IMG/VR virus record: IMGVR_UViG_3300033153_000868
Coordinates: 32,001 to 96,000 of that record
DNA: 64,000 bases
Source: a virus
Strand: one strand, 5' to 3'
Position 1 is the stretch's first letter, and each line of letters opens with the position of its first letter. This document shows, piece after piece, positions 4,587-34,100 of this stretch. Under the pieces are notes generated by a model. It did no database searches, was not told the DNA's origin, and worked only from the letters and a program-made list of their open reading frames with translations. Position numbers and translations under genes: made by a program.

Positions 4587-4674
4587 AACTGTAAAAAGTG
4601 CAGCTAAAGCTTTAGGTATTAGTGATAGAACTTTACATGCATTTAAAGATAAACTTAAAGATAGAAAAGAATGA
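4525..4674 (+). CDS. Small Fis-type helix-turn-helix DNA-binding protein
   Basis: LILALKKHKTVKSAAKALGISDRTLH is a Fis/HTH_8-like signature. Start is probably ATG 4525 or 4528 rather than 4492. ATGA overlap with polB. Confidence 0.7.
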   Translation: MMETLIQMRERLMILALKKHKTVKSAAKALGISDRTLHAFKDKLKDRKE

Positions 4675-6662
4675 AGCATTGGGTAATGGACTATGAGACT
4701 TTATCTAATTGTTTCACCGGGGTATTTGAACATTATAAGACTACAGAAACAAAAGTCTTTGTTATTCATGACCTGCGTAATGATTTAGATGAGTTCATTA
4801 GTTTCCTAGAAGAAAACTTTAATAATAAAGAGTGGCATATATCCTATAATGGATTGGCCTTTGATGCTCAAGTCACTCACTATATAATAGATAACCATAT
4901 AGATTGGTCAGATCTTAGTGGTTGTGAGATTGCTAGTATTATTTATAGATATGCCCAACGTTGTATTCAGAAATCTAACAATAAAGAATTCAGTGATTAT
5001 CCACAATGGAAGATGATAATTGGTCAAATAGACATATTTAAACTTCATCATTGGGATAATCCAGCCAAGCGTTCAAGTCTTAAATGGATTCAATATAGCA
5101 TGGATTGGGAAAACATCCTTGACATGCCTATTCATCATGAGACAGAGATAACTAAACAAGAAGAAATAGATACTATACTTGAATATTGTATTAATGATGT
5201 AAGATCTACTAAAGAAATTTATAATAGATCTAAGTCACAGGTTGGTTTAAGAAAAGAACTGACCCAGACTTATAACATTAATCTGTTTAGTGCTTCTGAG
5301 CCCCGTATCAGTAAAGAACTTTTTGGATTTTATTTATCAGAAAAACTTAATATACAAAAGAGGGACCTAAAACAAATGAGAACTCATAGAACTGTAATTA
5401 AAGTTGATGATATTATATTACCATACATCTCGTTTACATCTCCTGAGTTTAAAACATTACATGATAGGTTTAAATCTCTTGAGATAGATGCAACAAGATT
5501 AAAAGGTAGTTTTAAATATCATATTAATTACAAAGATGTGAAGACTCACTTTGGTTTAGGAGGTGCACACGGTGCTGCTGCTAAAGGAGTTTATGAAAGC
5601 TCAGATGATATGATCATTATGTCTTCGGATGTAACTAGTTTTTATCCTAATCTAGCTATTAAAAACAAGTGGTCTCCTGCGCATTTTCCAGTTGACCAGT
5701 TTTGTGATCAGTATGAGTGGTTCTTTGAGGAGCGTAAGAAGATACCTAAGAGCAATCCAATGAATTATGTATACAAGATTATACTTAATTCTACTTTTGG
5801 TCTTAGTAATGATGTAAACAGCTTCTTTTATGACCCTGAGTTGTGTATGAGAATTACAATTAACGGTCAACTAACGTTGATGATGTTGTATGAACAAATA
5901 ATGGAGCGTATACCGGGTGCTGTTGCTTTATTACAAAACACAGATGGTGTAGAAACTATTATACCTAGGGAGCACTATGATTTATATATGCAAATATGTG
6001 AAGAATGGGAAAATACTACAAGTTTAAACTTAGAACATGATGAATATCAAAAGCTTGTTTTATCTGATGTAAACAATTACATTGGTGTAAACAACTTTGT
6101 AAACGTTGACATTACTAAGTGGAGAGAAGTTAAACAAAGTCAGCCTCATTACTTATTTAAGGTTGAGAATGACAAGTTTAGCTTTGCGCCCGTTAAGCTT
6201 AAAGGTAGGTTTGACTTTCATAACCTGCAGTTGCATAAGAATAAGTCTAAGCTAGTGATCCCAAAGGCCATATATCAATACTTTGTTAATGATGTGCTGC
6301 CAGAAGATTACTTAGAAGAGAATAAAAATATTCTTGACTACTGTATAGGAGGTAAATCCAAAGGTGATTGGCAACAAGTAGCCCGCAGTATATTAAACGG
6401 TGCTTATAATGAAGAGTCATTGCAGAAAATCAATAGGTATTTTATATCTAAAGAAGGTGTAAAGATTATTAAAGTCAACAAGAATGATGGACGTGAGATA
6501 CAGTTAGAATCAGGTAGATGGTTGCAAACAGTCTTTAACAAGATGGAAGTTAAACCTAAATGGTCTGATTATAATATAGATAAGTTATATTATCTTCAAG
6601 CTATTGAATCTGAGATAAATAGTATACTCTCTGTAAAAACAAATCAATTAAAATTATTTTAA
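4671..6662 (+). CDS. polB: Family B DNA polymerase with 3'-5' exonuclease domain
   Basis: Exo motifs DYETL, YNGLAFD, YCINDV; polymerase motifs SDVTSFYPN, KIILNSTFG, NTDGV; C-terminal QLKLF. Confidence 0.92.
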   Translation: MKHWVMDYETLSNCFTGVFEHYKTTETKVFVIHDLRNDLDEFISFLEENFNNKEWHISYNGLAFDAQVTHYIIDNHIDWSDLSGCEIASIIYRYAQRCIQKSNNKEFSDYPQWKMIIGQIDIFKLHHWDNPAKRSSLKWIQYSMDWENILDMPIHHETEITKQEEIDTILEYCINDVRSTKEIYNRSKSQVGLRKELTQTYNINLFSASEPRISKELFGFYLSEKLNIQKRDLKQMRTHRTVIKVDDIILPYISFTSPEFKTLHDRFKSLEIDATRLKGSFKYHINYKDVKTHFGLGGAHGAAAKGVYESSDDMIIMSSDVTSFYPNLAIKNKWSPAHFPVDQFCDQYEWFFEERKKIPKSNPMNYVYKIILNSTFGLSNDVNSFFYDPELCMRITINGQLTLMMLYEQIMERIPGAVALLQNTDGVETIIPREHYDLYMQICEEWENTTSLNLEHDEYQKLVLSDVNNYIGVNNFVNVDITKWREVKQSQPHYLFKVENDKFSFAPVKLKGRFDFHNLQLHKNKSKLVIPKAIYQYFVNDVLPEDYLEENKNILDYCIGGKSKGDWQQVARSILNGAYNEESLQKINRYFISKEGVKIIKVNKNDGREIQLESGRWLQTVFNKMEVKPKWSDYNIDKLYYLQAIESEINSILSVKTNQLKLF

Positions 6663-6666
6663 ACAT

Positions 6667-7011
6667 ATGGATTATTTTGAATTAGAATGTGCAGTTGAAA
6701 GCTGGGCAGAAGAAAAAGGTATTTTAGAAAAAGCAACGCCAATGGCCCAAGCTTTAAAGACATTAGAAGAAACAACTGAGCTCTGCACGGCTATCAATGC
6801 TGATGACCGTGAAGAGATCATTGATGCTATGGGTGATATTATGGTCACCCTGATTATTCAGGCTAAGATGCAAAATGTATCTTTAGAGTATTGTCTTAAG
6901 TCAGCTTATAATGTAATTTCTAAACGTACCGGTAAAATGGTTAACGGTCAGTTTGTAAAAGATATAGATATTATATCTGGTACTGAGTCAGCTTACATAA
7001 AGAATGATTAA
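6667..7011 (+). CDS. mazG: MazG-like NTP pyrophosphohydrolase
   Basis: KTLEETTEL...EIIDAMGDIMVTL...AYNVISKRTGKMVNGQFVK, typical of single-domain phage MazG. Confidence 0.85.
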   Translation: MDYFELECAVESWAEEKGILEKATPMAQALKTLEETTELCTAINADDREEIIDAMGDIMVTLIIQAKMQNVSLEYCLKSAYNVISKRTGKMVNGQFVKDIDIISGTESAYIKND

Positions 7012-7837
7012 GGTACAAAGAACTAAGACCCTTGTAACTAAACCAAATAACAATAGTGCTAACTGCATAGCTCCCAATATTATCTACGGGTGTTTTGGCG
7101 GCTGTGTAGATACCTATTGTTATATGTCTAGGTATAATGGCAAAAGAGTCTTTGTTAATAAAAACGTTGACCAGATCTTCCAGTCTGTAGTTAATTGGGA
7201 AAAATCTTACTATAAAGAACCTGATCAACAAGACCCTATATATACTATGGTAGATGTAGCATGCAATTCAGATTTAGTTCTAATGCAAAAACATATGCCT
7301 GAACCTTTAATTGATTACCTTAAACGTTATGATGATCATCCTCAGCTTAATAGCACTATGGCCACTAAGTATCCGGGGTTGTTGAAGCTTGACGTAAAAA
7401 AGTTCAACAAACCTCCAAGAGTACGTGTAAGCCTTATGCCTCAGAAGTATTCTAATATATTAGAACCTAAGATGCAAAAGATAGAAAGTCGTATAGCTGA
7501 TGTTAACCGTCTAAAAGATTTAGGCTGGCAAGTTCATCTTAATTATAGCCCTTTAGTCTTTTATCCCGGTTGGAAAGAAGAGTATGATAAACTTTTTGCA
7601 CAGGTAAAAGAACAGGCAGGCATAAATAAATGTGAAGTTATTGCACTTACTAATCATACTAATCAAATGGCCAAGGCATCACCAGAAGCCCAGGACATGA
7701 TGAAGTATAGTTCAGAAGTAAAAAATCAAAGCGGTGTCATGAGATATCCTCTGATGCATAAAGGCCGGTTATTAAGAGAGTTTAAAGAGATATACAGTAA
7801 ATATTTTCCTTTAAATACAATAAGATATATATTTTAA
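7004..7837 (+). CDS. splB: Spore photoproduct lyase-like radical SAM protein
   Basis: GCFGGCVDTYCY cluster motif, ACNSD (cf. Bacillus SPL SCTSD), ATKY, RVRVSLMP, VHLNYSP, C-terminal IRYIF. Confidence 0.78.
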   Translation: MIKVQRTKTLVTKPNNNSANCIAPNIIYGCFGGCVDTYCYMSRYNGKRVFVNKNVDQIFQSVVNWEKSYYKEPDQQDPIYTMVDVACNSDLVLMQKHMPEPLIDYLKRYDDHPQLNSTMATKYPGLLKLDVKKFNKPPRVRVSLMPQKYSNILEPKMQKIESRIADVNRLKDLGWQVHLNYSPLVFYPGWKEEYDKLFAQVKEQAGINKCEVIALTNHTNQMAKASPEAQDMMKYSSEVKNQSGVMRYPLMHKGRLLREFKEIYSKYFPLNTIRYIF

Positions 7838-7868
7838 TTTGCTGTGTCAGATTAATTTATTATATTTA
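7838..7868 (+). promoter_or_regulatory. Bacteroidota sigma70-like promoter (-33/-7)
   Basis: TTTG (7838-7841), 19 nt, then TATATTTA (7861-7868); consensus is TTTG-N19-21-TAnnTTTG. Lies 20 nt upstream of ORF 7889. Confidence 0.55.
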
Positions 7869-7888
7869 CACTTTAAAAGTTTAATATT

Positions 7889-8770
7889 ATGGGACATAAA
7901 AAACCAACAGAGACCACAAGGTCTTATTTAGAGAATGCACCCTTACCCAATCATGGTAAGACATACACAGTTGTTACACACAAAGAGGTGATAGACAATA
8001 CGTTAACTTTACTCAAGAAGAGTGGGTTCACAGTTCAAAGGGAAATATACAGAGCAAATACTAATGCTACAATTGCACAAGGTATTTATCATATTTACCC
8101 TAGTAGAAGCGTTGATGAAGATATCATTAATGAAACTGAATTAGGGATGATGTTTGCCTGGACTAATTCATATAATAAACTTGTTAGATTCCAATGTGCT
8201 ATTGGGGCCTATGTTAAGGTTTGTTATAACGGTATGGTTGCTGGAGATATGATGAATTTCAAAAGAAAACATACTGGGACGGCAAATTTGGATTGCTCTA
8301 TAAATATAGCTGATCAAGTTAAAAATGCTGAGAAGTATTATAAACGTATCATCAAAGATAGAGACGCTATGAAGAATGTTATTCTTACTGAAAGACAACA
8401 AGCTGAATTAGTAGGTAGAATGTTTGTACAGGAAGAACTTATAGATTCTCAACAAACATCTATTATTAAGGCTGAGCTAGCTAAACCATCATTTCACTAT
8501 GGTACTGATGCTGAATCCTGCTGGACTTTTTATAATCATGTTACACATGCATTAAAGAAAGCACATCCACGCTACTGGCTGCAAGACAGTCAAAATTTTC
8601 ATGACTTTATTGTTGCAGAATGTTTAAATACATCTAAGCCAACCATAAAAAAAGAAGCTTTATTATCTGATAAAGTTATTGTAATGTCAGAATCAGTAGA
8701 AGAAGTGGTAGAAGTTGATGAAGATGTTACTGACACACAACTAATTGAAAATGTATTTCTAGATCAGTGA
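7889..8770 (+). CDS. DUF932/DUF945-family protein
   Basis: NSYNK...GAYVKVCYNGMV...RKHTG and WTFYNHVTHALK motifs; acidic tail. Confidence 0.75.
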   Translation: MGHKKPTETTRSYLENAPLPNHGKTYTVVTHKEVIDNTLTLLKKSGFTVQREIYRANTNATIAQGIYHIYPSRSVDEDIINETELGMMFAWTNSYNKLVRFQCAIGAYVKVCYNGMVAGDMMNFKRKHTGTANLDCSINIADQVKNAEKYYKRIIKDRDAMKNVILTERQQAELVGRMFVQEELIDSQQTSIIKAELAKPSFHYGTDAESCWTFYNHVTHALKKAHPRYWLQDSQNFHDFIVAECLNTSKPTIKKEALLSDKVIVMSESVEEVVEVDEDVTDTQLIENVFLDQ

Positions 8771-8841
8771 AGCTAATTGTTGCACTCATATTAGCTATAC
8801 TCTTTTTATACATTAGTAGTCAAAACAAAATGAATAAATAG
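8767..8841 (+). CDS. Putative 24-aa hydrophobic peptide (not in ORF track)
   Basis: GTG start overlaps the upstream TGA (GTGA); MKLIVALILAILFLYISSQNKMNK*. Confidence 0.4.
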   Translation: MKLIVALILAILFLYISSQNKMNK

Positions 8842-8897
8842 GAGATAACCAACCGGGGCCTGAGTTTTTGCATTCTTGGGCTCTGGCTCCTTATTTA
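8835..8897 (+). other. Intergenic RNA stem-loop with multiple G-U pairs
   Basis: ccggggcctgag (8853-8864) pairs with cttgggctctgg (8875-8886), 4 of 12 pairs G-U; outer stem taaataggag/ctccttattta. Confidence 0.55.
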
Positions 8898-8920
8898 CTC
8901 CCTTTACAAAAGAATAACAC

Positions 8921-9112
8921 ATGAAGAAATTTCTAGAATTTGCTTTGATATGGTACAGTCAACAGATGGCTATACCATTCTGGGTGATCGGACACGTACA
9001 TTTAAGCGTAAATACATATAAAGACTTGCATGAAATCATAGCTAGCCTAGGATTAAACGTACTCGTAGCTGTTGGTTTTATAATAGACTATCGTAAAAAT
9101 AAAGACAAATGA
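8921..9112 (+). CDS. Small membrane protein
   Basis: 63 aa with two hydrophobic stretches. Confidence 0.6.
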   Translation: MKKFLEFALIWYSQQMAIPFWVIGHVHLSVNTYKDLHEIIASLGLNVLVAVGFIIDYRKNKDK

Positions 9113-9315
9113 CAAATAAAGAAAGAAAAGAAAAAGAAAGATATGCCAAGGCCGGAGTAAACTTTATACCTTGTAGTGAAGATAGTCAGATTTATAGCTG
9201 GCAAAGAACAAATAGAAAAGCAACATCAGGTGCTGCAAATGGACCATGTGGTGCATATGAGGTTAGAAAGATTGAAGATGTAATGGCTGAAAGAAGAAAA
9301 AAGAAAAAGAAATGA
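9109..9315 (+). CDS. Small basic hypothetical protein
   Basis: 68 aa; ATGA overlaps on both sides. Confidence 0.6.
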   Translation: MTNKERKEKERYAKAGVNFIPCSEDSQIYSWQRTNRKATSGAANGPCGAYEVRKIEDVMAERRKKKKK

Positions 9316-9626
9316 TTAAAAAAGAATGGATGTTTATGGATAAAGCTGAAAAAAGAAAAGGAACTCCAGTATTCACTGGCGTATTAAAATATTTCCCGGA
9401 TGCTATTATGGAAATAGCACGTGTATCTTTACAGGGAAACAAACAACATCATCCTGATAAACCTCTTCATTGGGATCGTAATAAGTCTAATGATGATTAT
9501 GATGCATTAGCTAGACATCTAATTGATGCAGGCACAATTGATGATGATGGAATTAGGCACACCGCAAAGGTTGCTTGGCGTGCTCTTGCATGTTTACAAA
9601 AAGAACTAGAAGAAACTAGAGAATAA
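9312..9626 (+). CDS. DUF5664 / dATP-dGTP diphosphohydrolase N-terminal-like protein
   Basis: FPDAIMEIARVSLQGNKQH..W...DALARHL...HTAKVAWRALA pattern. Confidence 0.7.
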   Translation: MIKKEWMFMDKAEKRKGTPVFTGVLKYFPDAIMEIARVSLQGNKQHHPDKPLHWDRNKSNDDYDALARHLIDAGTIDDDGIRHTAKVAWRALACLQKELEETRE

Positions 9627-9656
9627 AAAAAGCCCGGAATTAACCGGGCTTTATTC
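9621..9656. terminator. Bidirectional terminator between the convergent replication and structural modules
   Basis: aaagcccgg-aattaa-ccgggcttt perfect stem; the flanking A-tract gives a U-tract on the - strand. Confidence 0.85.
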
Positions 9657-12649: not shown

Positions 12650-12883
12650 TTATTTACAATACCCTCTTTTAAAAGCTTCAGACTGAACAGGTTCTTTTGC
12701 TCTAGTTGACTTTTGTGGAGGATTTAAATTAGTCTTTTTTGCTAATCTTATTCTTGCTTCAACTTTTTTCTTATTCTTAGCATTTTGCAATGCTTGTGGA
12801 ATAGACGTAGGGTTATAAACCCCATTAGTTGTTTCTCTTTTATAGCTTTCACCCTGCATAGGGAATGATATTTTCTTTGCCAT
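12650..12883 (-). CDS. Small basic hypothetical protein
   Basis: 77 aa, K/R-rich, tightly packed in the operon. Confidence 0.6.
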   Translation of the reverse strand: MAKKISFPMQGESYKRETTNGVYNPTSIPQALQNAKNKKKVEARIRLAKKTNLNPPQKSTRAKEPVQSEAFKRGYCK

Positions 12884-12885
12884 GA

Positions 12886-13155
12886 TTATTTCTTTTTAGA
12901 TTTCTTGTTGCTACCACCATATTGTAAAGCTCTCATGCTAGCAATATTTTTTTTGTCTTGTTCTGTTTTGAACTTAGGTCTAAAAAAAGTGCTTTCTTTA
13001 GCCTCTAATTCTTTTACAAGTTGAGCATCAGACTTATTTGGTAAGCTATCATATACATCAGTTACATCGCCACCAGCCATATAACCTTTTAGACCACCTC
13101 CTTTAGAGTATGCATCTATTTTCATTTTGTTTGTAATACCTTTCTTGTTTCCCAT
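12886..13155 (-). CDS. Small basic protein with xxxGG motifs
   Basis: 89 aa; YSKGG, YMAGG, LQYGG. Confidence 0.65.
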   Translation of the reverse strand: MGNKKGITNKMKIDAYSKGGGLKGYMAGGDVTDVYDSLPNKSDAQLVKELEAKESTFFRPKFKTEQDKKNIASMRALQYGGSNKKSKKK

Positions 13156-13157
13156 GA

Positions 13158-13358
13158 CTATTTTTTTACTTTTTTAGGGCCACCGTATTGTTTATAGTCT
13201 AATACTGAACCACCATTCATAAAACCTTTTAGTCCACCACCTTTAGCCATTGATTCCATTCCTGCTTTAGAAGGTGTAATGTCTCCATCTCCAGCACCTT
13301 TTGTAAATCCACCACCGTAAGTGTAGCTCATTCCTGCTTTTTTCATATTATTTGGCAT
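13158..13358 (-). CDS. Small basic protein with xxxGG motifs; paralogue of 12886..13155
   Basis: 66 aa; YTYGG, MAKGG, FMNGG, KQYGG; shares KGGGLKG(Y/F)MxGG with its neighbour. Confidence 0.65.
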   Translation of the reverse strand: MPNNMKKAGMSYTYGGGFTKGAGDGDITPSKAGMESMAKGGGLKGFMNGGSVLDYKQYGGPKKVKK

Positions 13359-13363
13359 AATTT

Positions 13364-13825
13364 CTATTTTTTAATTGTTGTATATTTTTCAAATCCACGT
13401 GACCCAAAATAAGCTACATAAATTGTAACTAATAAAGTCTTTAATAAATCAACCCAACTTTCATCTATATCAAATGCTATATTTAAAGAGTCAAGAATAA
13501 TATATAAAGATGTGATGACAGTTAAATATATTAATGTCATTGGTCTTGTATTTTTACTAAGCCATGAATCAGATTTCATATCAGACTCCCATCTTTTACT
13601 AACTTCTTGAAGTTCTATCTGATCTAATTCTAAAAGTTTCAAAGCTTTCTCTTTGTCTTCCGGTGGCATAACAGGATCTTTATCTATAAGATTCTTTACT
13701 ATACCAAGAACACCAGAGTCTGGTAATAAATCTCCTACTGTATCTACAATAGCAGAACCATTACCTAATAGGAACTTTCCTACTTTAGTATCTTTAAATT
13801 TCTTTTTAGGTTTTTTATCACTCAT
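13364..13825 (-). CDS. Holin-like protein (GTA_holin_3TM-like)
   Basis: RWESDMKSDSWLSKNTRP followed by two TM helices and YFGSRGFEK. Confidence 0.7.
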   Translation of the reverse strand: MSDKKPKKKFKDTKVGKFLLGNGSAIVDTVGDLLPDSGVLGIVKNLIDKDPVMPPEDKEKALKLLELDQIELQEVSKRWESDMKSDSWLSKNTRPMTLIYLTVITSLYIILDSLNIAFDIDESWVDLLKTLLVTIYVAYFGSRGFEKYTTIKK

Positions 13826-13834
13826 GTTTTTAAT

Positions 13835-14824
13835 TTAAGGGTATACTAATATTTCTAAAGGTGTATAAAGCAATTGACCATCTACATTTGACAATGATGA
13901 ACCAGCAAACGTTTGTAAAGAAAAGTCTTCATCACTTATACTATTTATATTAAATAGCTGAGGTCCTGACTTTCCTGTCTGTGATACTGTAATTGCAATT
14001 TTATTTACGTCAGCTACAGCTGGAGAAAAATCAAATTGATATGTTCCTGGCTGATCTCTACTTACACTTAATGTAAAATCTGTTGTGTTTTCTAATACAG
14101 TAATTACCGGATCATTATCGCCAGCTTGACTTAACAATGCTCTAAATACTTTTGGTGAAAAGTATGAAATACTTATTGTATCTCCTTTTGTTTGAACATC
14201 TATATCACCAGCACCAATTAAAGTTCTAAACCTTAATTGATCACCTATTTCACTTTCAAAAACCTCTTGACCTCCGCCTATATTAATTGCAGATGTTTGA
14301 TCACCACCACCTGTTGCATTAATGATCAGTGAACTACCATCATCACTTATATTTATATTAGAACCTGCAACTATAGATTTAAATCTCAGTGATTCACCAA
14401 CTTTATCTTTATATAAACCAAAGCCACGTCCTATATTTTCTGCAGTATTGGGTTCTCCATCAGTAGTTAATTCTATATAGTTATCATCTAATGATAAAGC
14501 CAGTTTTAAGTTAGATGATAAACTTTTAAGTGAGCGTAAATAAGATATGCATTCCCCTGTATCAGGGTCAGTTGTTGTTTTTTGAAATACACCTACTCCA
14601 GATTTTGTATTTTCTGGTGTATTTTTTATTTCACATGACGCAGCTTCAACCTTAAAGTCTTTTACTTTAATAAGCTTAACTGCTTTATAAGGAATTGGAG
14701 AAGCTACACCAGTCATATCAGGCTGTTCATTCCATTTTCCTAAAACAAGAACATCATCTTTTTCAGCAAGCTTTGAAAACTTACCTTGTCTAATTAAACT
14801 TAATATGTCAGTTAAAATATTCAT
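13835..14824 (-). CDS. Putative fibre/structural protein; shares terminal domains with 9671..12286
   Basis: 329 aa; internal NIGxG...LRF(K/R)(S/T) repeats; C-terminal ALLSQ..P..LENT..G.Y..EI..Y. Confidence 0.6.
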   Translation of the reverse strand: MNILTDILSLIRQGKFSKLAEKDDVLVLGKWNEQPDMTGVASPIPYKAVKLIKVKDFKVEAASCEIKNTPENTKSGVGVFQKTTTDPDTGECISYLRSLKSLSSNLKLALSLDDNYIELTTDGEPNTAENIGRGFGLYKDKVGESLRFKSIVAGSNINISDDGSSLIINATGGGDQTSAINIGGGQEVFESEIGDQLRFRTLIGAGDIDVQTKGDTISISYFSPKVFRALLSQAGDNDPVITVLENTTDFTLSVSRDQPGTYQFDFSPAVADVNKIAITVSQTGKSGPQLFNINSISDEDFSLQTFAGSSLSNVDGQLLYTPLEILVYP

Positions 14825-14827
14825 ACT

Positions 14828-15052
14828 TTATTTGCCATCATAGGTCCAACCACCCATTTTATATTTTTGTTTTTTATCTTTACCAGATCTATCTTGAACA
14901 ATTCTTTCTGCATTACCACCTTTTCTCATTTTTTCTACTACAGAACCTAGCATGATATCTTCTTCAGCAAGTTCACCACCTATTCTCATAAGTAGTTTAC
15001 TTTTCTGTCTTGTCATTTTTTGCTTTGGTAAGCAAGCTCTTTTTTTAGCCAT
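14828..15052 (-). CDS. Small basic protein with xxxGG motifs
   Basis: 74 aa; MRIGGE, MRKGG, YKMGG. Confidence 0.65.
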   Translation of the reverse strand: MAKKRACLPKQKMTRQKSKLLMRIGGELAEEDIMLGSVVEKMRKGGNAERIVQDRSGKDKKQKYKMGGWTYDGK

Positions 15053-15063
15053 TTTATTTAAAT

Positions 15064-15210
15064 TTATATGTCTAATGTAAACGTTACAAAAAACAGGTAT
15101 ACTTTCATTGTAGCATAATTAAACTCAGCATCTGGTTGTATAAACTCCCAACCCAATGCAAATCTATTGTGCGGCCAATGAAATGCTATTTCTAATTGCC
15201 AATCACCCAT
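15064..15210 (-). CDS. 48-aa hypothetical protein (not in ORF track)
   Basis: MGDWQLEIAFHWPHNRFALGWEFIQPDAEFNYATMKVYLFFVTFTLDI*; TAATG coupling with the upstream ORF. Confidence 0.6.
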   Translation of the reverse strand: MGDWQLEIAFHWPHNRFALGWEFIQPDAEFNYATMKVYLFFVTFTLDI

Positions 15211-15311
15211 TATATTTTACTTTTAGTTTTTTTACAAAGACCTTGACGGCAATGCCCTAAACAAACTTTACCTTTTGTAACCCATTGTATTAATAAACAA
15301 ATTTGTCTCAT
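15210..15311 (-). CDS. 33-aa Cys-rich basic peptide (not in ORF track)
   Basis: MRQICLLIQWVTKGKVCLGHCRQGLCKKTKSKI*; ATGA and TAATG overlaps with its neighbours. Confidence 0.55.
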   Translation of the reverse strand: MRQICLLIQWVTKGKVCLGHCRQGLCKKTKSKI

Positions 15312-15442
15312 CTTCCTTGTCCTTTATATTTTTTTTTATAGTTCTTACTTGTTTTTAAACTAGAACTTTTGCTTTTTGCATGAACCCCAGGTCTTTTTGA
15401 CTTTGAGGGTTTTTCATATACTGCTGCTTGTACTCTTGCCAT
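15308..15442 (-). CDS. 44-aa highly basic peptide ending YKGQGR (not in ORF track)
   Basis: MARVQAAVYEKPSKSKRPGVHAKSKSSSLKTSKNYKKKYKGQGR*; 14 K/R vs 1 acidic residue; resembles small phage proteins ending KxYRGQG. Confidence 0.7.
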   Translation of the reverse strand: MARVQAAVYEKPSKSKRPGVHAKSKSSSLKTSKNYKKKYKGQGR

Positions 15443-15957: not shown

Positions 15958-16938
15958 ATGAACAAAGACATCTTTAAACCCAGAGTAAACATACTGCCTT
16001 ATGAGTATCCACAACTATTAGCATACAAAGACGCAATTAGGCATTCCTACTGGATAGATACAGAATTCAACTTTACAGAAGACATACAAGACTTTAAAGT
16101 CACTATATCAAAAGAAGAAAAAGATGTCATAAAAAAGACAATGCTTGCAATTGCTCAGATAGAAGTAAATGTAAAAACTTTTTGGGGAGATCTTTATAAA
16201 CGCATGCCTATCACAGAAGTAGGTGATGTAGGCTTTACTTTTGCTGAGTCAGAAGTAAGGCACAAAGATGCTTATGCCAGGCTGCTTAGAATACTAGGAT
16301 TAGAAAAAGAATTTCAATCAGTAGTTGAGGTACCTGCAATAGAAGGTAGACTTAAGTACTTAAAGAAGTACTTGGATGGTACACGTTCTAGAGACAATAA
16401 AATGTATACTAAGTCTGTGCTGTTGTTCTCTTTATTTATAGAGCACGTAAGTCTATTTAGTCAGTTCTTGATTATGATGAGCTTTAACAAAGAAAAAAAT
16501 GTACTTAAGGGTATATCTAATGTTGTTGAGGCTACTAGTAAAGAAGAAGAAATACATGGTAACTTTGGTGCTGAGATTATTAATATTATCAAAAAAGAAA
16601 ACCCTGAATGGTTTGACCAAGAGTTTGAAGACCTAATTGACTCAGCATGTAGAAAAGCATATAGAGCAGAGTGTGGAATACTTGATTGGATATTTGAGAA
16701 AGGGGAGCTTAGCTTCTTACCACAAAATACAATACAACATTTTATAAAAAACAGATTCAATAACTCTCTAGAAAAGATAGGCATGAAACCAATCTTTGAG
16801 GTAGATCAAGAAATATTAAAAGCAGTAGAATGGTTTGATATAGAGATCACCGGTACTAAAGAAGGAGACTTCTTTTACAAAAAGAGTGTTGACTATAACA
16901 AGAAAAGCAAAAGCATCACAGAAGATGATTTATTTTAA
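15958..16938 (+). CDS. nrdB: Ribonucleotide reductase class I beta subunit (class Id / NrdBi type)
   Basis: AIAQIEVNVKTFWG, ESEVRHKDAY, EHVSLFSQF, EEEIH, C-terminal ITEDDLF. Confidence 0.93.
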   Translation: MNKDIFKPRVNILPYEYPQLLAYKDAIRHSYWIDTEFNFTEDIQDFKVTISKEEKDVIKKTMLAIAQIEVNVKTFWGDLYKRMPITEVGDVGFTFAESEVRHKDAYARLLRILGLEKEFQSVVEVPAIEGRLKYLKKYLDGTRSRDNKMYTKSVLLFSLFIEHVSLFSQFLIMMSFNKEKNVLKGISNVVEATSKEEEIHGNFGAEIINIIKKENPEWFDQEFEDLIDSACRKAYRAECGILDWIFEKGELSFLPQNTIQHFIKNRFNNSLEKIGMKPIFEVDQEILKAVEWFDIEITGTKEGDFFYKKSVDYNKKSKSITEDDLF

Positions 16939-16949
16939 AAATAAAACCA

Positions 16950-17123
16950 ATGGAATATAATAAGTACTACTGGCTGAATGAAGACAGCCGCACATTTTTA
17001 TCAAGAGGGTATATATCAGAAAGCCCTGAACAAAGAATCAAAGACATTGCTATTAAAGCAGAAAAGTATTTGAATATAAAAGGCAAGAGGATTTTACTCT
17101 TTGTCTACTCCTGTATGGATTAA
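16950..17123 (+). pseudogene. nrdA: N-terminal fragment of NrdA, out of frame with the rest of the gene
   Basis: MEYNKYYWLNEDSRTFLSRGYISESPEQRIKDIAIKAEKYLNIKG resembles the start of flavobacterial NrdA; the frame switches at ~17082-17084. Confidence 0.8.
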
Positions 17124-18546
17124 TTTTGGTAAACAAAAAGGTTTACCTATAAGTTGCTATGGATCTAATGTTGATGATAACTTAGATAGTATTTTAAATG
17201 CTGGTCGTGAGATTGGAATGATGAGTAAATATGGCGGAGGTACAAGTGCTTTTATTGGCAACATTAGAGCAAGAGGAACTGAAATATCTACAGGTGGTTT
17301 TGCTGATGGTCCAGTGCACTACGCTAAGATATATGATACTGTAGTAGATGTATGTAAGCAGTCTGAAGCTAGACGTGGTGCTTGTGCAGTATACCTGCCG
17401 GTTGAGCATGCTGACATCTTAGAGTTCTTAGATATTGGTACAGAGGGTAACCCCATACAAAATTTGCAGTATGGTGTTACAGTTACTGATCAATGGATGA
17501 CTGAAATGAAAGAAGGAGATAAAGACAAACGTAAAGTATGGGCTAAGATCATTCAGAATAGAAGTGAGTTTGGATTTCCTTATGTTATGTTTAAAGATAA
17601 TTCTAATAACAATTCTCCGTATAAAGAACTTGGGATGGATATTACAGCATCTAATTTGTGCTCAGAAATCCAGCTTCCTACAGATAGTTATAACTCTTTT
17701 GTATGTTGCCTTGGTTCTATCAACCTGTTACATTGGGATCAGATAAAAGAAACTGACGCAATTGAAACATATGTATATTTCTTAAACGCAGTAATGGATG
17801 AGTTCATTATTAAGTCTGAGACTATGCCGGGTATGAAGAGAGCATTTAACTTTGCTGAAAAGCATAGAGCTATTGGTCTTGGTGTATTAGGTTATCATTC
17901 TTTGTTTCAATCTAAGCTTCTTGAGTTTGACTCACTGCAGGCTAAAGGATTAAACAGTGAGATTTTTAGAACCCTTAAAGATAGAAGTGAGATTGCTTCA
18001 AGAGAGTTACATAATGATTATGGATACACATCTCTTAGAGAAGGGTATGCTAATACAACCCTTATGGCAATTGCTCCTACTAAGTCTAGCTCATTTATAC
18101 ACGGTGCTGTGTCTATGGGTATAGAGCCTATTAAGTCTAACTACTTTATTAAGGATCTTGCTAAGTCTAAGACTATCTATAAGAACCCATTCTTAGAAGA
18201 GGAACTTGAGAAGTATGGTCTAAATACAGACAAAACCTGGAAATCCATTCTAAAGAAAGATGGAAGTGTACAACACTTAGACTTTCCTACCAAAGAAGTA
18301 TTTAAATCATTTGTTGAGATATCTCCAAAAGAGATTGTATTGCAGGCGGCACAGAGACAAAAGTATATTGATCAATCACAGTCATTAAACTTAATGATAG
18401 ATCCATCTGTCTCAGCTAAAGATATAAACAAACTATATATGTACGCTTGGGAAGAAGGTGTAAAAACTTTATACTATCAATTTAGCAAAAGTTCAGCTCA
18501 GGATTTTGCACGTAACATTTTAGAATGCTCAAGTTGTGAAGGTTAA
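17101..18546 (+). CDS. nrdA: Ribonucleotide reductase class I alpha subunit (main body; true start 16950, frameshifted)
   Basis: GLPISC, GGGT, ASNLCSEI, APTKSSS, KTLYY, C-terminal CSSCEG. Confidence 0.93.
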   Translation: MSTPVWINFGKQKGLPISCYGSNVDDNLDSILNAGREIGMMSKYGGGTSAFIGNIRARGTEISTGGFADGPVHYAKIYDTVVDVCKQSEARRGACAVYLPVEHADILEFLDIGTEGNPIQNLQYGVTVTDQWMTEMKEGDKDKRKVWAKIIQNRSEFGFPYVMFKDNSNNNSPYKELGMDITASNLCSEIQLPTDSYNSFVCCLGSINLLHWDQIKETDAIETYVYFLNAVMDEFIIKSETMPGMKRAFNFAEKHRAIGLGVLGYHSLFQSKLLEFDSLQAKGLNSEIFRTLKDRSEIASRELHNDYGYTSLREGYANTTLMAIAPTKSSSFIHGAVSMGIEPIKSNYFIKDLAKSKTIYKNPFLEEELEKYGLNTDKTWKSILKKDGSVQHLDFPTKEVFKSFVEISPKEIVLQAAQRQKYIDQSQSLNLMIDPSVSAKDINKLYMYAWEEGVKTLYYQFSKSSAQDFARNILECSSCEG

Positions 18547-31100: not shown

Positions 31101-34100
31101 TTGCCTCTTTCATATCTTTAGTAAGGCTTAAGAATTGCTTTAATCTCTTAGGGTTAGCTGCAGCAAGTTTTCTTTTTGTTATGTATGCTTGAGCCCATTC
31201 ATCTAACTGAGCATTAATATCATCTCTTTCAGATGCAGTATATACTAATAAGTTACCATTACCATCTCTTTCATTAAATAGATAATCAACCTTGTAGTTT
31301 TCAAATCCTTTTAATATTGATATCAATAATGAACCATCTTTAACATCTTTAAATGGTTGCTCTGATGTTAGACCTTCTATTGTTAATCCCGTATCATTAA
31401 ATAATTTATCTACAACCGCCTTACCTTGTGGATTTAATCTAGAATATGCATACATTCTTTTAAGCATAACTACAGGATCACTTTCATTTGAAACTGATTT
31501 TAATAAGCTAGTATATGCTTCTTGAAATTTAACAGGAACAATCAATGCTTCACCCTCAGTTAATTCTGTCTTACCAAAGAAGTCAGTATCAACCATTGTT
31601 GTAGTAGCTATATATGATCTTACTTTATATGATAAAGAGTTAAAACCACCTATCTCTGCTGCATCTTTATTAAAGTCACTTGTACTTCTTATACCTGAAG
31701 TCTCTTCAACATTTTCTATTTTTAATTGATTAGCCTGATCCATATCAGAAATAACATTAATCAAAGCAAACACTTCTTTTTTAATGTCTTCAGGATAATT
31801 TATAAATGCCATATCAATTTGTTCAAGATATGCTTTCTTTGTTCCAGAAAAACCTTTGTTGGCTTCTCCCTCTGGATCAAGCATAATCATGAAATCTGTT
31901 TCAAGATCATTATATACTTTTGTAGGGTTATATGACTTCTCAGTTAATGATAATTCATTTACTCTATTTATAAACATACCAGCCATAGATCTAATTAAAG
32001 GATCTATTACATCTGAGTCAACATATAGCTCTCCTGCAGGCTCACCATTTTCTACAGCTTTAGATGCTGTGTCATATCTAACTAATGCATTGGCAATACT
32101 AAACGCACCGCTTAAAGAGTCATCAAGTTGTGTAAATTCATTAAGTTGTACAGGGGCATTTTTAAATTTACCTGAATCTATATTTTCATATAACGTTAGT
32201 AACTCTGTAGAAGAGTACTTAGAAAATACAGCTTTAATCCACTCTATTAACTTAGTAAAAAATGATTTTATTTCTGTATCTATTTTTGAGCTTCTTGGAT
32301 TCATTTTGAATGCATCAAATTCATCCGCCATATATTCTTCAGCAAACTCATTTTCTAACTCAAGTTGAGACATTTCTTTATATTGCTCAGCTGAATTCTT
32401 AAACTTTTCTAATTCTATTTTATACTTAGATCCATACTTGGCTTTTAATTCTTTTTTAGCAATGCTTCTATATCTATCAATCTGCCCTTGAGTAAGAACT
32501 GTTCTAAATATACTATGGAATGCCTCATGGTATTTATAAGGGCTTAATGGGCTTGTATATATAATACCGTTTACATCTACTCCATTAGCTACCCTATCTA
32601 AATTTAATACAAAAGAACCTACTCTTTCATATCCTTTAGAAATACCATTGTCAGCAAGAACCAAAAGATCTTCTACACCAATTATATCTGGTAAATTATC
32701 ATTAGCCCAATCTAAAAACTCATTGTAGTCTTCTATACGCTCTACTTCTGATGTTGCTTGTACTAGCTTATTAGCTCCTCTTTCTAGTTTTTTTCTTTTA
32801 GCTAATAAATCTTGGTACTCCTTGCTTTCTTTAATAGCTTTTATTTTATCCTTCTTGGTAGTTAGGCCTTCTTCTAGCTTCTGCTTTAAAGCACTAAGCT
32901 CATTTTTTACACTATCAAGAGTAGTTTCTTTTTCTGATTTTTCTACAGCTAGTGCACCGGCTCCTCCACCTTTAATCACCATAAGGTTAACTAACTGTTT
33001 AAAGTTTGAGTCTTTCATTAACTCTTTTTCTCTTTCAGTTAATTCAATCCCTCTGAGTATTGCATTAGAAATGTGATCAATATTTTCTTGATATTCTCCA
33101 AAGTTATTATTAGATACATCATCTACCATTTTATCAAACTCAGCTTCTTCCATATCAGATACGGAATCCTCTGCTTCTGCAGATGTAGGTCTATCTCTAC
33201 CTACTGCTGATTCCATTTCTAACTCATTGCTTTTATCTGTATTAGGAATATATGCAATATCACGTGATAATTGTATAGAATCTGATGAAGCAGAAACTTC
33301 TGCTGTTTGATTTTTTACTACTTGTGGTAAAACTTCAGTAGTACTATTTTCATATATTACATCAGGAGATACACCTGTTGCAAAAGATTTTCTAAAGTTT
33401 TTATTTTTTAATCCTGCATTTAAATCATCTACTGTTTTATCTTGATTATACTTTGCAAGTAAGTCTTCAAATACATCTTTAGCAAACTCTTTTGCTTCAA
33501 CTTCTTCTGGTTTTAGACCAACATTTAAACTTGTTTTAGTGCTTGTATTATCTAAAGAAATAAAAATAGATCCGTCAGGTCCTACATTTAACTCTATTAA
33601 GTTACCCGAATAACTACTTAAAAACAATCTTTCATTTAATTCTGCATTATACTTTGCAGCTTCTTCCATACTTTTTTCTGAATCTTTTATAGCACCTATT
33701 CTTTTAGCTGCCTCAACTACATCTACATATAATTCTTGTAATTCAGTATTAGTATATTCAACCGGTTTTAAATTTACTTTTGCGTATGTACCATTTGGCA
33801 ACCTAACCATAGCTAGATATCTGTCAGTACCCTTTCCTGCATCCAGTAAGTTATCCCACTGATTCTGCATTCTAAGTTGTTGCTCTATTGCTTCTTCTAA
33901 AGCCTCTCTTTCTTTACCTTTTAAATTAGTAGTAAAGTCATAAATTCTTTTACCTGTCTCTTTATCATATTTTAAATCAAATACAAATAAGTTACCTTCT
34001 TGATCTGCTGTATTGTACTGCAATGCATCCATTGATATAGGATAAACCGTTTCTCTAGATTTAGCATATGCAACTTGACCACCCCCGGCTACTAAGTTTA

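Follow-up and report, generated by a model that had tools for sequence, protein, structure and literature searches.

Spore photoproduct lyase (SPL) is the textbook example of radical S-adenosylmethionine (SAM) DNA repair and is tied to endospores. In the Geobacillus enzyme, Cys90, Cys94 and Cys97 are the ligands of the iron–sulphur cluster, Tyr96 and Tyr98 lie beside it as a possible radical relay, and Cys140 (Cys141 in Bacillus) is the hydrogen-atom donor (PMC3467042). Ser142 and Asp143 bind the amino group of SAM, Lys174 and Tyr175 serve its carboxylate and the cluster environment, Ser195 contacts it, and Arg273 binds both SAM and the lesion phosphate (PMC3467042). On the side of the damaged bases, Arg193 contacts O4 of the 5′-dihydrothymine, Glu268 binds thymine O4, Tyr339 hydrogen-bonds to O4 and N3 of the 5′-dihydrothymine, and Arg304 and Tyr305 form the tip of a DNA-probing β-hairpin (PMC3467042). 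Here we describe a phage-encoded relative, the product of the open reading frame (ORF) at 7004..7837 of a 64,000-nucleotide stretch of viral DNA (positions 32,001 to 96,000 of IMG/VR record IMGVR_UViG_3300033153_000868; 'the window' denotes this whole stretch). The ORF encodes a compact SPL-family radical SAM enzyme with a CX3CX4C loop in place of the canonical CX3CX2C. Judged from its sequence, the enzyme may be a light-independent DNA-repair lyase for a thymine–thymine photoproduct, a reading to which we give equal weight for and against.

Family, fold and active site

The phage protein was assigned to the Pfam family SPL (PF20903) with 61.6 bits against a cut-off of 27 (E 7.8e-17), its residues 7–209 covering profile positions 65–258. 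The best NCBIfam model was TIGR03886, 'SPL family' (144.8 bits, E 3.6e-42), matched only over profile positions 62–346 and below the equivalog cut-off of 437.55; a full member of that family, P0185, scored 566.6 bits over positions 2–346. On TIGR04070, the equivalog of true SPLs, the phage protein reached 59.5 bits against a cut-off of 400, and true Clostridium-type SPLs, the outgroup clade of the tree described below, scored 453–555 bits. A HMMER search of the PDB returned Geobacillus SPL (4fhc) as the sole match (E 4.7e-10). The protein fell into no family in a PHROGs search, had no tblastn match among 50,697 phage records and no close structural relative in BFVD. The ORF cannot be extended upstream, and its 277-residue length is common to more than 100 protein clusters.

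An AlphaFold2 model built from an 87-sequence alignment had a mean predicted local distance difference test score of 97, was confident through the cluster loop and displayed the partial (β/α)6 TIM barrel of the radical SAM superfamily. Foldseek placed six SPL entries at the top (E 4e-16 to 9.5e-15), with the next radical SAM enzyme at 6e-5. VIA-align superposed 265 of the 277 residues onto residues 62–341 of 4fhc (Z 26.4, root-mean-square deviation 2.4 Å, approximately 21 % identity); beyond SPL, RlmN came next at Z 14.1, and RlmN, PFL-AE, viperin, NifB and BioB all lay at Z 12–14. SPL is thus by far the nearest relative in both sequence and fold, which bears out the SPL-like identity proposed in a preliminary description of this DNA. 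The N-terminal α/β domain of SPL (a four-stranded sheet and three helices) is mostly absent, a point that the preliminary description had not noted; the fold alignment begins at SPL residue 62 and continues as far as the C-terminus. Of the N-terminal part, the alignment to 4fhc indicated that only the loop equivalent to Ser76–Ser79, just before the first cluster Cys, is retained; in SPL the backbone atoms of this loop hold the 3′-thymine.

Residues were mapped using the alignment to 4fhc together with an alignment (A4) that includes five true Clostridium-type SPLs; the counterparts of the SPL residues introduced above are listed in Table 1. The HMMER alignment set ACNSD of the phage protein opposite ACTSD of 4fhc, which contains Cys140, so that the Cys identified in the preliminary description as matching the SPL hydrogen donor is present as C87. 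The counterparts of this donor and of the Tyr96/Tyr98 relay are accompanied by those of Arg193, Glu268, Tyr339 and the hairpin residue Tyr305. From the phage protein to the true SPLs, S18, C30, C34, Y38, C39, D90, K122, R141, E211, Y248 and Y275 are invariant in A4, and most active-site counterparts are invariant across the short forms, the long TIGR03886 forms and the true SPLs. Lys309, which binds phosphate in SPL, has a possible equivalent in K253, nearly invariant after the hairpin Tyr in alignments A1 and A4 and located at a different offset. Two structural features of SPL are lacking: the N-terminal domain and Arg273.

Recurrence of the CX3CX4C loop and distribution of the gene

The phage protein contains six Cys residues (positions 21, 30, 34, 39, 87 and 210), none of which form a CX3CX2C motif; the candidate ligands are spaced C30-x3-C34-x4-C39. 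In the HMMER alignment to 4fhc, GCFGGCVDTYCY lies opposite GCMGHC--HYCY, with two residues inserted after the second Cys and ahead of the aromatic one. Both the altered loop and the Cys of ACNSD had been noted in the preliminary description, and reading of the ORF placed them exactly where it had put them (Table 1). The same description held that an insertion unique to this assembly would undermine the proposal, and called for its conservation among phage homologues to be checked. The insertion proved to be widespread, being present in 120/120 of the closest protein clusters (81–96 % identity), in 45 of 46 full-length viral loci (the single exception reads CX3CX3C), in homologues with as little as 23 % identity and in cellular genes. 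All 120 close clusters also kept the cluster Cys triad, Y38, C87 and ACN[ST]D, and the three cluster Cys and Y38 were invariant in alignments A2 and A4. Among 1.84 billion cluster representatives at 50 % identity, only 197 matched the phage protein at E ≤0.001. Many of these distant matches (22–51 % identity) read C-x-G-G-C-x-x-[ST]-Y-C, and other distant homologues read CX3CX2C, CX3CX3C, CX4CX2C, CX7CX2C or CX11CX2C. The literature search found no paper containing 'CX3CX4C' or 'CxxxCxxxxC'.

The short CX3CX4C form, not mentioned for cells in the preliminary description, was also chromosomal in Lewinella, Neolewinella, Cesiribacter, Legionella sp., Candidatus Odyssella, Paracaedibacteraceae and Rickettsiaceae. 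In Candidatus Odyssella (L092:6249-7442), the short gene has metK, encoding S-adenosylmethionine synthetase, directly upstream in the same orientation, an adjacency not seen at the other cellular homologues examined.

The phylogeny with SPL families called for in the preliminary description was inferred by maximum likelihood from 99 rows and rooted on true SPLs. Long TIGR03886 genes branched early, and almost exclusively short forms made up a clade of 60 rows with 99 % support, positioned amid or beside the long TIGR03886 genes from Cytophagales, Myxococcus and Curtobacterium. A subclade of 37 rows (96 % support) contained 25 of the 26 CX3CX4C rows intermixed with 10 CX3CX2C rows, and the starred branches of the tree require at least four changes of motif state. 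An approximately unbiased (AU) test rejected a single CX3CX4C clade (difference in log-likelihood 188.9, p 5.7e-5), for a group that was set by motif before tree building and in a tree with long branches. This intermixing and the AU rejection indicate that the insertion has been gained or lost several times whilst all other active-site residues were retained, which argues for functional equivalence of CX3CX4C and CX3CX2C. The two extra loop residues would then represent a tolerated, recurrent variant and not a loss of function.

Three homologues (P0151, P0163 and P0186) start with an intein C-terminal block (..N-N-L-V-T-H-N followed by C-Y). Since the +1 residue in each is the third cluster Cys, inteins appear to target the radical SAM loop of this SPL-like family.

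In marine samples, the shortened form with its preserved active site was found on at least 588 viral contigs and in over 1,100 protein clusters. The SPL protein was 73–80 % identical between phages whose helicase, UDG, DnaB and polB proteins were only 25–55 % identical, indicative of horizontal exchange, very strong constraint or both. Amongst 80 phages with a polB 78–99 % identical to that in the window, the gene was found within 10 kb in 33; at least 22 of the same 80, with at least 6 kb of flank on both sides, lacked it, including genomes whose polB was 91 % identical. Of the 55 near relatives with sufficient flank, 22 were without the gene. It is thus optional among close relatives and, as an accessory gene, appears to pass between distant phages. 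Purifying selection acts on it, with a ratio of nonsynonymous to synonymous substitution rates (dN/dS) of 0.04–0.11 against its relatives.

Two contigs filed under bacterial metagenome-assembled genomes (MAGs) also carried SPL genes, 71 % (L086, approximately 100 kb, under a Clostridium sp. MAG) and 83 % (L085, a Flavobacteriales MAG) identical to the phage gene; both are probably of phage origin and were binned with bacterial DNA. Also in the Clostridium MAG were a true SPL and a third SPL-like stretch broken by stop codons.

Substrate, mechanism and alternative readings

The enzyme is almost certainly functional, and its target is very probably a DNA lesion containing thymine, processed by chemistry like that of SPL. 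The likeliest substrate appears to be the spore photoproduct (5-thyminyl-5,6-dihydrothymine) or a very close thymine–thymine cross-link; that the lesion is the spore photoproduct itself is the leading reading, with roughly an even chance of being right. From the family, fold, residue conservation, selection and distribution described here we infer cluster binding, SAM cleavage, substrate and timing as follows. By homology with Geobacillus and Bacillus SPL, C30, C34 and C39 would hold a [4Fe-4S] cluster with SAM on its free iron, and the reduced cluster would cleave SAM to the 5′-deoxyadenosyl radical. The damaged thymine pair would be flipped into a pocket made up of R141, E211, Y275 and the hairpin bearing Y248, where the radical would take a hydrogen from C6 of the 5,6-dihydrothymine, breaking the methylene bridge. 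C87 would give back a hydrogen atom, and return of the radical could run through Y40 and Y38. Expressed from the replication module of a marine phage, such an enzyme could repair the injected or replicating phage genome without light.

A role against ultraviolet (UV) lesions is supported by the conserved thymine-contacting residues. Members of the parent family occur in lineages that tolerate radiation and desiccation. UVC induces a Curtobacterium 'SPL family protein', and the paper that reports this also cites evidence for the formation of spore photoproduct in dried DNA from non-spore-formers (PMC12029717). A family search of the phage genome found no photolyase homologue, which we count in favour of repair.

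Several observations weigh against the spore photoproduct as the substrate or stand as caveats to it. Its formation requires UV together with dehydrated or A-like DNA. The literature search found no report of spore photoproduct in virions, where the preliminary description had suggested that densely packed DNA may build it up, and the genome contained no homologue of the small acid-soluble spore protein (SASP) Pfam family, even at E 1. Within the protein, T216 replaces Arg273, one of the two residues that hold the lesion phosphate in SPL (A4), SPL residues 1–61 have no counterpart in the model, and the hydrogen-donor Cys is not universal in the wider family (A1). The scores are far beneath both equivalog cut-offs, hence the protein is in neither curated family, and the motif variants listed in PMC9477430 all end in CX2C. 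Habitat also counts here: contigs with zero differences over the gene were present in runs from several studies labelled as sediment, marine sediment or hydrothermal vent metagenome. Across window 6000–9000 (runs X2, X4 and X5), contigs without differences came from such runs and also from seawater and viral metagenomes; going by sample labels, the phage occurs beyond lit water too. Contigs 95–99 % identical over parts of the gene were present in X15, an oligo-dT RNA library with the label sediment metagenome; being contigs, they cannot show transcription. Finally, intracellular bacteria are among the cellular carriers of the short form, and neither the neighbours of cellular short forms nor a Pfam tally of 148 neighbour proteins of long forms revealed a conserved functional partner; DoxX accounted for 11 of the 148, and no photolyase or SOS gene was among the 25 families listed in the tally.

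The alternative that survives best, in itself unlikely, is an SPL-fold radical SAM repair enzyme for a different thymine-centred lesion, such as another dihydropyrimidine or a methylene-bridged intrastrand cross-link arising without sunlight. The chemistry would be the same, with hydrogen abstraction at C6 followed by bond scission or re-aromatization. The sediment and vent runs would suit such a lesion, yet their labels also leave room for phages sunk on particles from lit water. Carriage of the short form by amoeba-associated intracellular bacteria (Legionella, Odyssella, Paracaedibacter and Rickettsiaceae) points the same way, whereas the sole physiological datum for the parent family is induction by UVC. 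With the N-terminal domain lost and Arg273 replaced, the pocket is altered where the 3′ side and the phosphate are bound, and the scores are well under both equivalog cut-offs; against this, all residues that contact the two thymine bases in SPL are retained, and for no SPL relative is another lesion known.

It is improbable that the protein is a DNA-modifying or counter-defence enzyme after the manner of gp53 of Pseudomonas phage M6, an SPL-fold radical SAM isomerase that remodels a modified thymidine in DNA (PMC8989533). The location of the gene in a replication and nucleotide-metabolism module, beside MazG and dGTP_diPhyd_N (dNTP pyrophosphatase-like), would be in line with such a role. However, the genome encodes no homologue of ThyA or ThyX, the type of enzyme that the 5-hydroxymethyldeoxyuridine (5-hmdU) pathway requires, and none of PurZ; the lack of any tblastn match among the phage records likewise argues against closeness to gp53. 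Absence from 22 of the 55 near relatives would be unexpected for a genome-wide base modification, and the gene moves alone among phages and stands alone in bacteria without conserved neighbours. We therefore favour repair over modification, because the gene is optional, is stand-alone in bacteria and resides in a genome without ThyA, ThyX, PurZ or photolyase.

Less probable still is a substrate other than DNA (a free nucleotide, RNA or a small molecule), with the SPL scaffold merely inherited. Loss of the DNA-facing N-terminal domain and the presence of nucleotide-pool enzymes next door would fit this, and fold alone does not fix a substrate; nevertheless, the hairpin residue Y248, whose SPL counterpart is the proposed lesion-flipping residue, is invariant, as are the base-contacting Arg, Glu and Tyr, and the Lys that follows the hairpin is nearly so. 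That the insertion abolished cluster binding, leaving an inactive relic or a non-catalytic role, is very improbable: the CX2C end is constant in the superfamily variants of PMC9477430, but the dN/dS values, the invariance of the three Cys, Y38, C87 and the SAM-contacting residues in hundreds of sequences, the alternation of CX3CX4C and CX3CX2C within one clade with other active-site residues retained, and the confident modelling of the loop all speak for a working enzyme.

On the preferred reading of a dark-active SPL-like lyase, we tentatively propose, with rather less than even confidence, a wider picture. Marine phage particles and some non-sporulating bacteria would accumulate a spore photoproduct-type thymine cross-link in packed, frozen, dried or aerosolized DNA, and a minimal SPL, spread horizontally among phages, would undo it without light, dispensing with the N-terminal domain and using a CX3CX4C SAM-cluster loop not described before. 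If true, this would be the first viral radical SAM DNA-repair enzyme (the literature search found no paper on a phage-encoded SPL) and a natural experiment showing that lengthening the final spacer of the radical SAM motif need not cost function. If the enzyme is active, viruses own a light-independent means of photoproduct repair, and spore photoproduct-type lesions may arise outside spores. The natural CX3CX2C/CX3CX4C pairs, together with the CX3CX3C, CX4CX2C, CX7CX2C and CX11CX2C forms, permit a direct test of loop variability, and at 277 residues, with no N-terminal domain, such an SPL would offer a convenient minimal system for studies of mechanism and structure. The present analysis adds the statistical rejection of a single motif origin, the cellular CX3CX4C forms, the counts of carriers and non-carriers and the caveat of dark habitats.

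Genome setting and comparison with known systems

The virus record from which the window is taken is complete, comprising 114,219 bp at 32.7 % G+C with direct terminal repeats. It encodes a portal, a large terminase, tail fibres that are collagen-like and a class I ribonucleotide reductase, along with giant ORFs, the longest of 4,607 residues. The SPL gene lies near the end of a + strand replication block in the order helicase, UDG-superfamily protein, DnaB, AAA_24, primase, DUF2201, PD-(D/E)XK nuclease, polB-like, MazG, SPL, DUF932 and dGTP_diPhyd_N, and its start codon region overlaps the MazG stop by 8 nt. The polB-like translation contains DVTSFYPN, KIILNSTFG and NTDGV, which we take to be PolB motifs A, B and C. 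The preliminary description placed the gene in an operon with polB and mazG; the adjacency holds in this genome but is not a conserved association. Synteny tables indicated that SPL, where present in this phage group, usually occupies a variable slot between polB and the DUF932 gene. Its position in the block varies, MazG is missing beside it in many relatives, and it was also found with a polB only 29–33 % identical or without polB nearby. A scan with a consensus promoter gave matches at chance level.

Table 1. Coordinates within the window of the SPL-family gene, its mapped residues and its neighbours
Feature	Position	Strand	Basis or remark
Short SPL-family radical SAM gene, 277 residues	7004..7837	+	ORF, Pfam, NCBIfam, AlphaFold2 fold
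C30, C34, C39 (SPL Cys90, Cys94, Cys97), putative [4Fe-4S] ligands; CX3CX4C loop C-F-G-G-C-V-D-T-Y-C, residues 30–39	7091..7120	+	Sequence, alignment
Y38 (SPL Tyr96) and Y40 (SPL Tyr98)	Y40 7121..7123	+	Alignment to PDB 4fhc
A-C87-N-S89-D90: C87 (SPL Cys140), S89 and D90 (SPL Ser142 and Asp143)	7259..7273; C87 codon 7262..7264	+	Alignment to 4fhc
K122 and Y123 (SPL Lys174 and Tyr175), R141 (SPL Arg193), S143 (SPL Ser195)	7367..7432	+	Alignment to 4fhc
E211 (SPL Glu268); T216 at the Arg273 position	7634..7651	+	Alignment A4 including five true SPLs
R247-Y248 (SPL Arg304-Tyr305), hairpin tip; K253, possible counterpart of Lys309	7742..7762	+	Alignments A1 and A4; model strand 245–247
Y275 (SPL Tyr339)	7826..7828	+	Invariant in A1 and A4
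Family B DNA polymerase-like gene	4671..6662	+	Upstream context, not a fixed partner; no Pfam match above cut-off
MazG-like nucleotide pyrophosphohydrolase	6667..7011	+	Pfam PF03819, PHROG 715
DUF932 gene, downstream of SPL	7889..8770	+	Pfam PF06067

Other features of the window were also observed. The replication block contains two dNTP pyrophosphohydrolase-like genes, dGTP_diPhyd_N (9312–9626) and MazG (6667–7011). Between the end of the + strand block (9626) and a convergent gene of 871 residues (9671), a 9-bp G+C-rich hairpin with flanking T runs (9629–9652) looks like a terminator for the − strand 871-residue gene and may act in both directions. The NrdA-like ORF at 17218–18546 (442 residues) covers only positions 300–795 of the 975-position PHROG 84 profile, with a separate 57-residue ORF just upstream of it (window 16950–18546) and an intact NrdB at 15958–16938; the large ribonucleotide reductase subunit thus looks split or N-terminally truncated. 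On the − strand, a series of small Lys/Arg/Gly-rich ORFs (44–89 residues) lies among late genes at 12650–15442, and six consecutive giant ORFs of 1925, 4607, 1152, 987, 933 and 2028 residues, followed by one of 2095 residues, extend over 19315–60665.

Amongst described systems, SplB/SPL of Geobacillus thermodenitrificans and Bacillus subtilis (TIGR04070; PDB 4fhc, 4fhd and 4fhf) shares with the phage protein the barrel, the C-terminal helices and the β-hairpin, as well as counterparts of the Cys triad, Tyr96/98, Cys140, Ser142/Asp143, Lys174, Arg193, Ser195, Glu268, Tyr305 and Tyr339. In contrast, the phage protein is only about 21 % identical to SPL, has CX3CX4C instead of CX3CX2C and Thr at the Arg273 position, and comes from a phage of non-sporulating marine bacteria whose genome lacks a SASP homologue. 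The nearest sequence family is TIGR03886 of non-spore-formers (Cytophagales, Myxococcus and Curtobacterium), which shares the C-terminal signature ..RY...K......IRYIF, whereas its long forms (343–385 residues) retain the N-terminal domain and the canonical CX3CX2C. Closest in architecture are the cellular short CX3CX4C genes, which are similarly truncated (291–294 residues), carry a C-x-G-G-C-R-[ND]-[ST]-Y-C loop and fall within the same 96 % subclade, yet are 34–37 % identical to the phage protein and chromosomal, standing alone amid unrelated neighbours.

M6 gp53, which functions in thymidine hypermodification to 5-(2-aminoethyl)-2′-deoxyuridine (5-NedU; PMC8989533), is likewise a phage radical SAM enzyme that models on SPL and concerns a thymine derivative in DNA. 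It differs in its canonical CTVGCAFC motif from residue 125 and in its fixed cluster with a kinase, aGPT-Pplase and a pyridoxal phosphate (PLP) enzyme; the phage collection contained no sequence match to the phage protein, whose genome lacks a ThyA/ThyX-type homologue. With regard to motif spacing, ThiC is described in PMC4389238 as having CX2CX4C, resembling the phage protein in its X4 second spacer but not in its non-canonical active-site architecture. The CX4-11CX2C clusters at RadicalSAM.org (PMC9477430) also place three Cys in a short loop with altered spacing and a presumed SAM-cleaving cluster. In those variants the first spacer is lengthened and CX2C kept, whereas in the phage protein the second spacer is lengthened within an otherwise canonical SPL fold.

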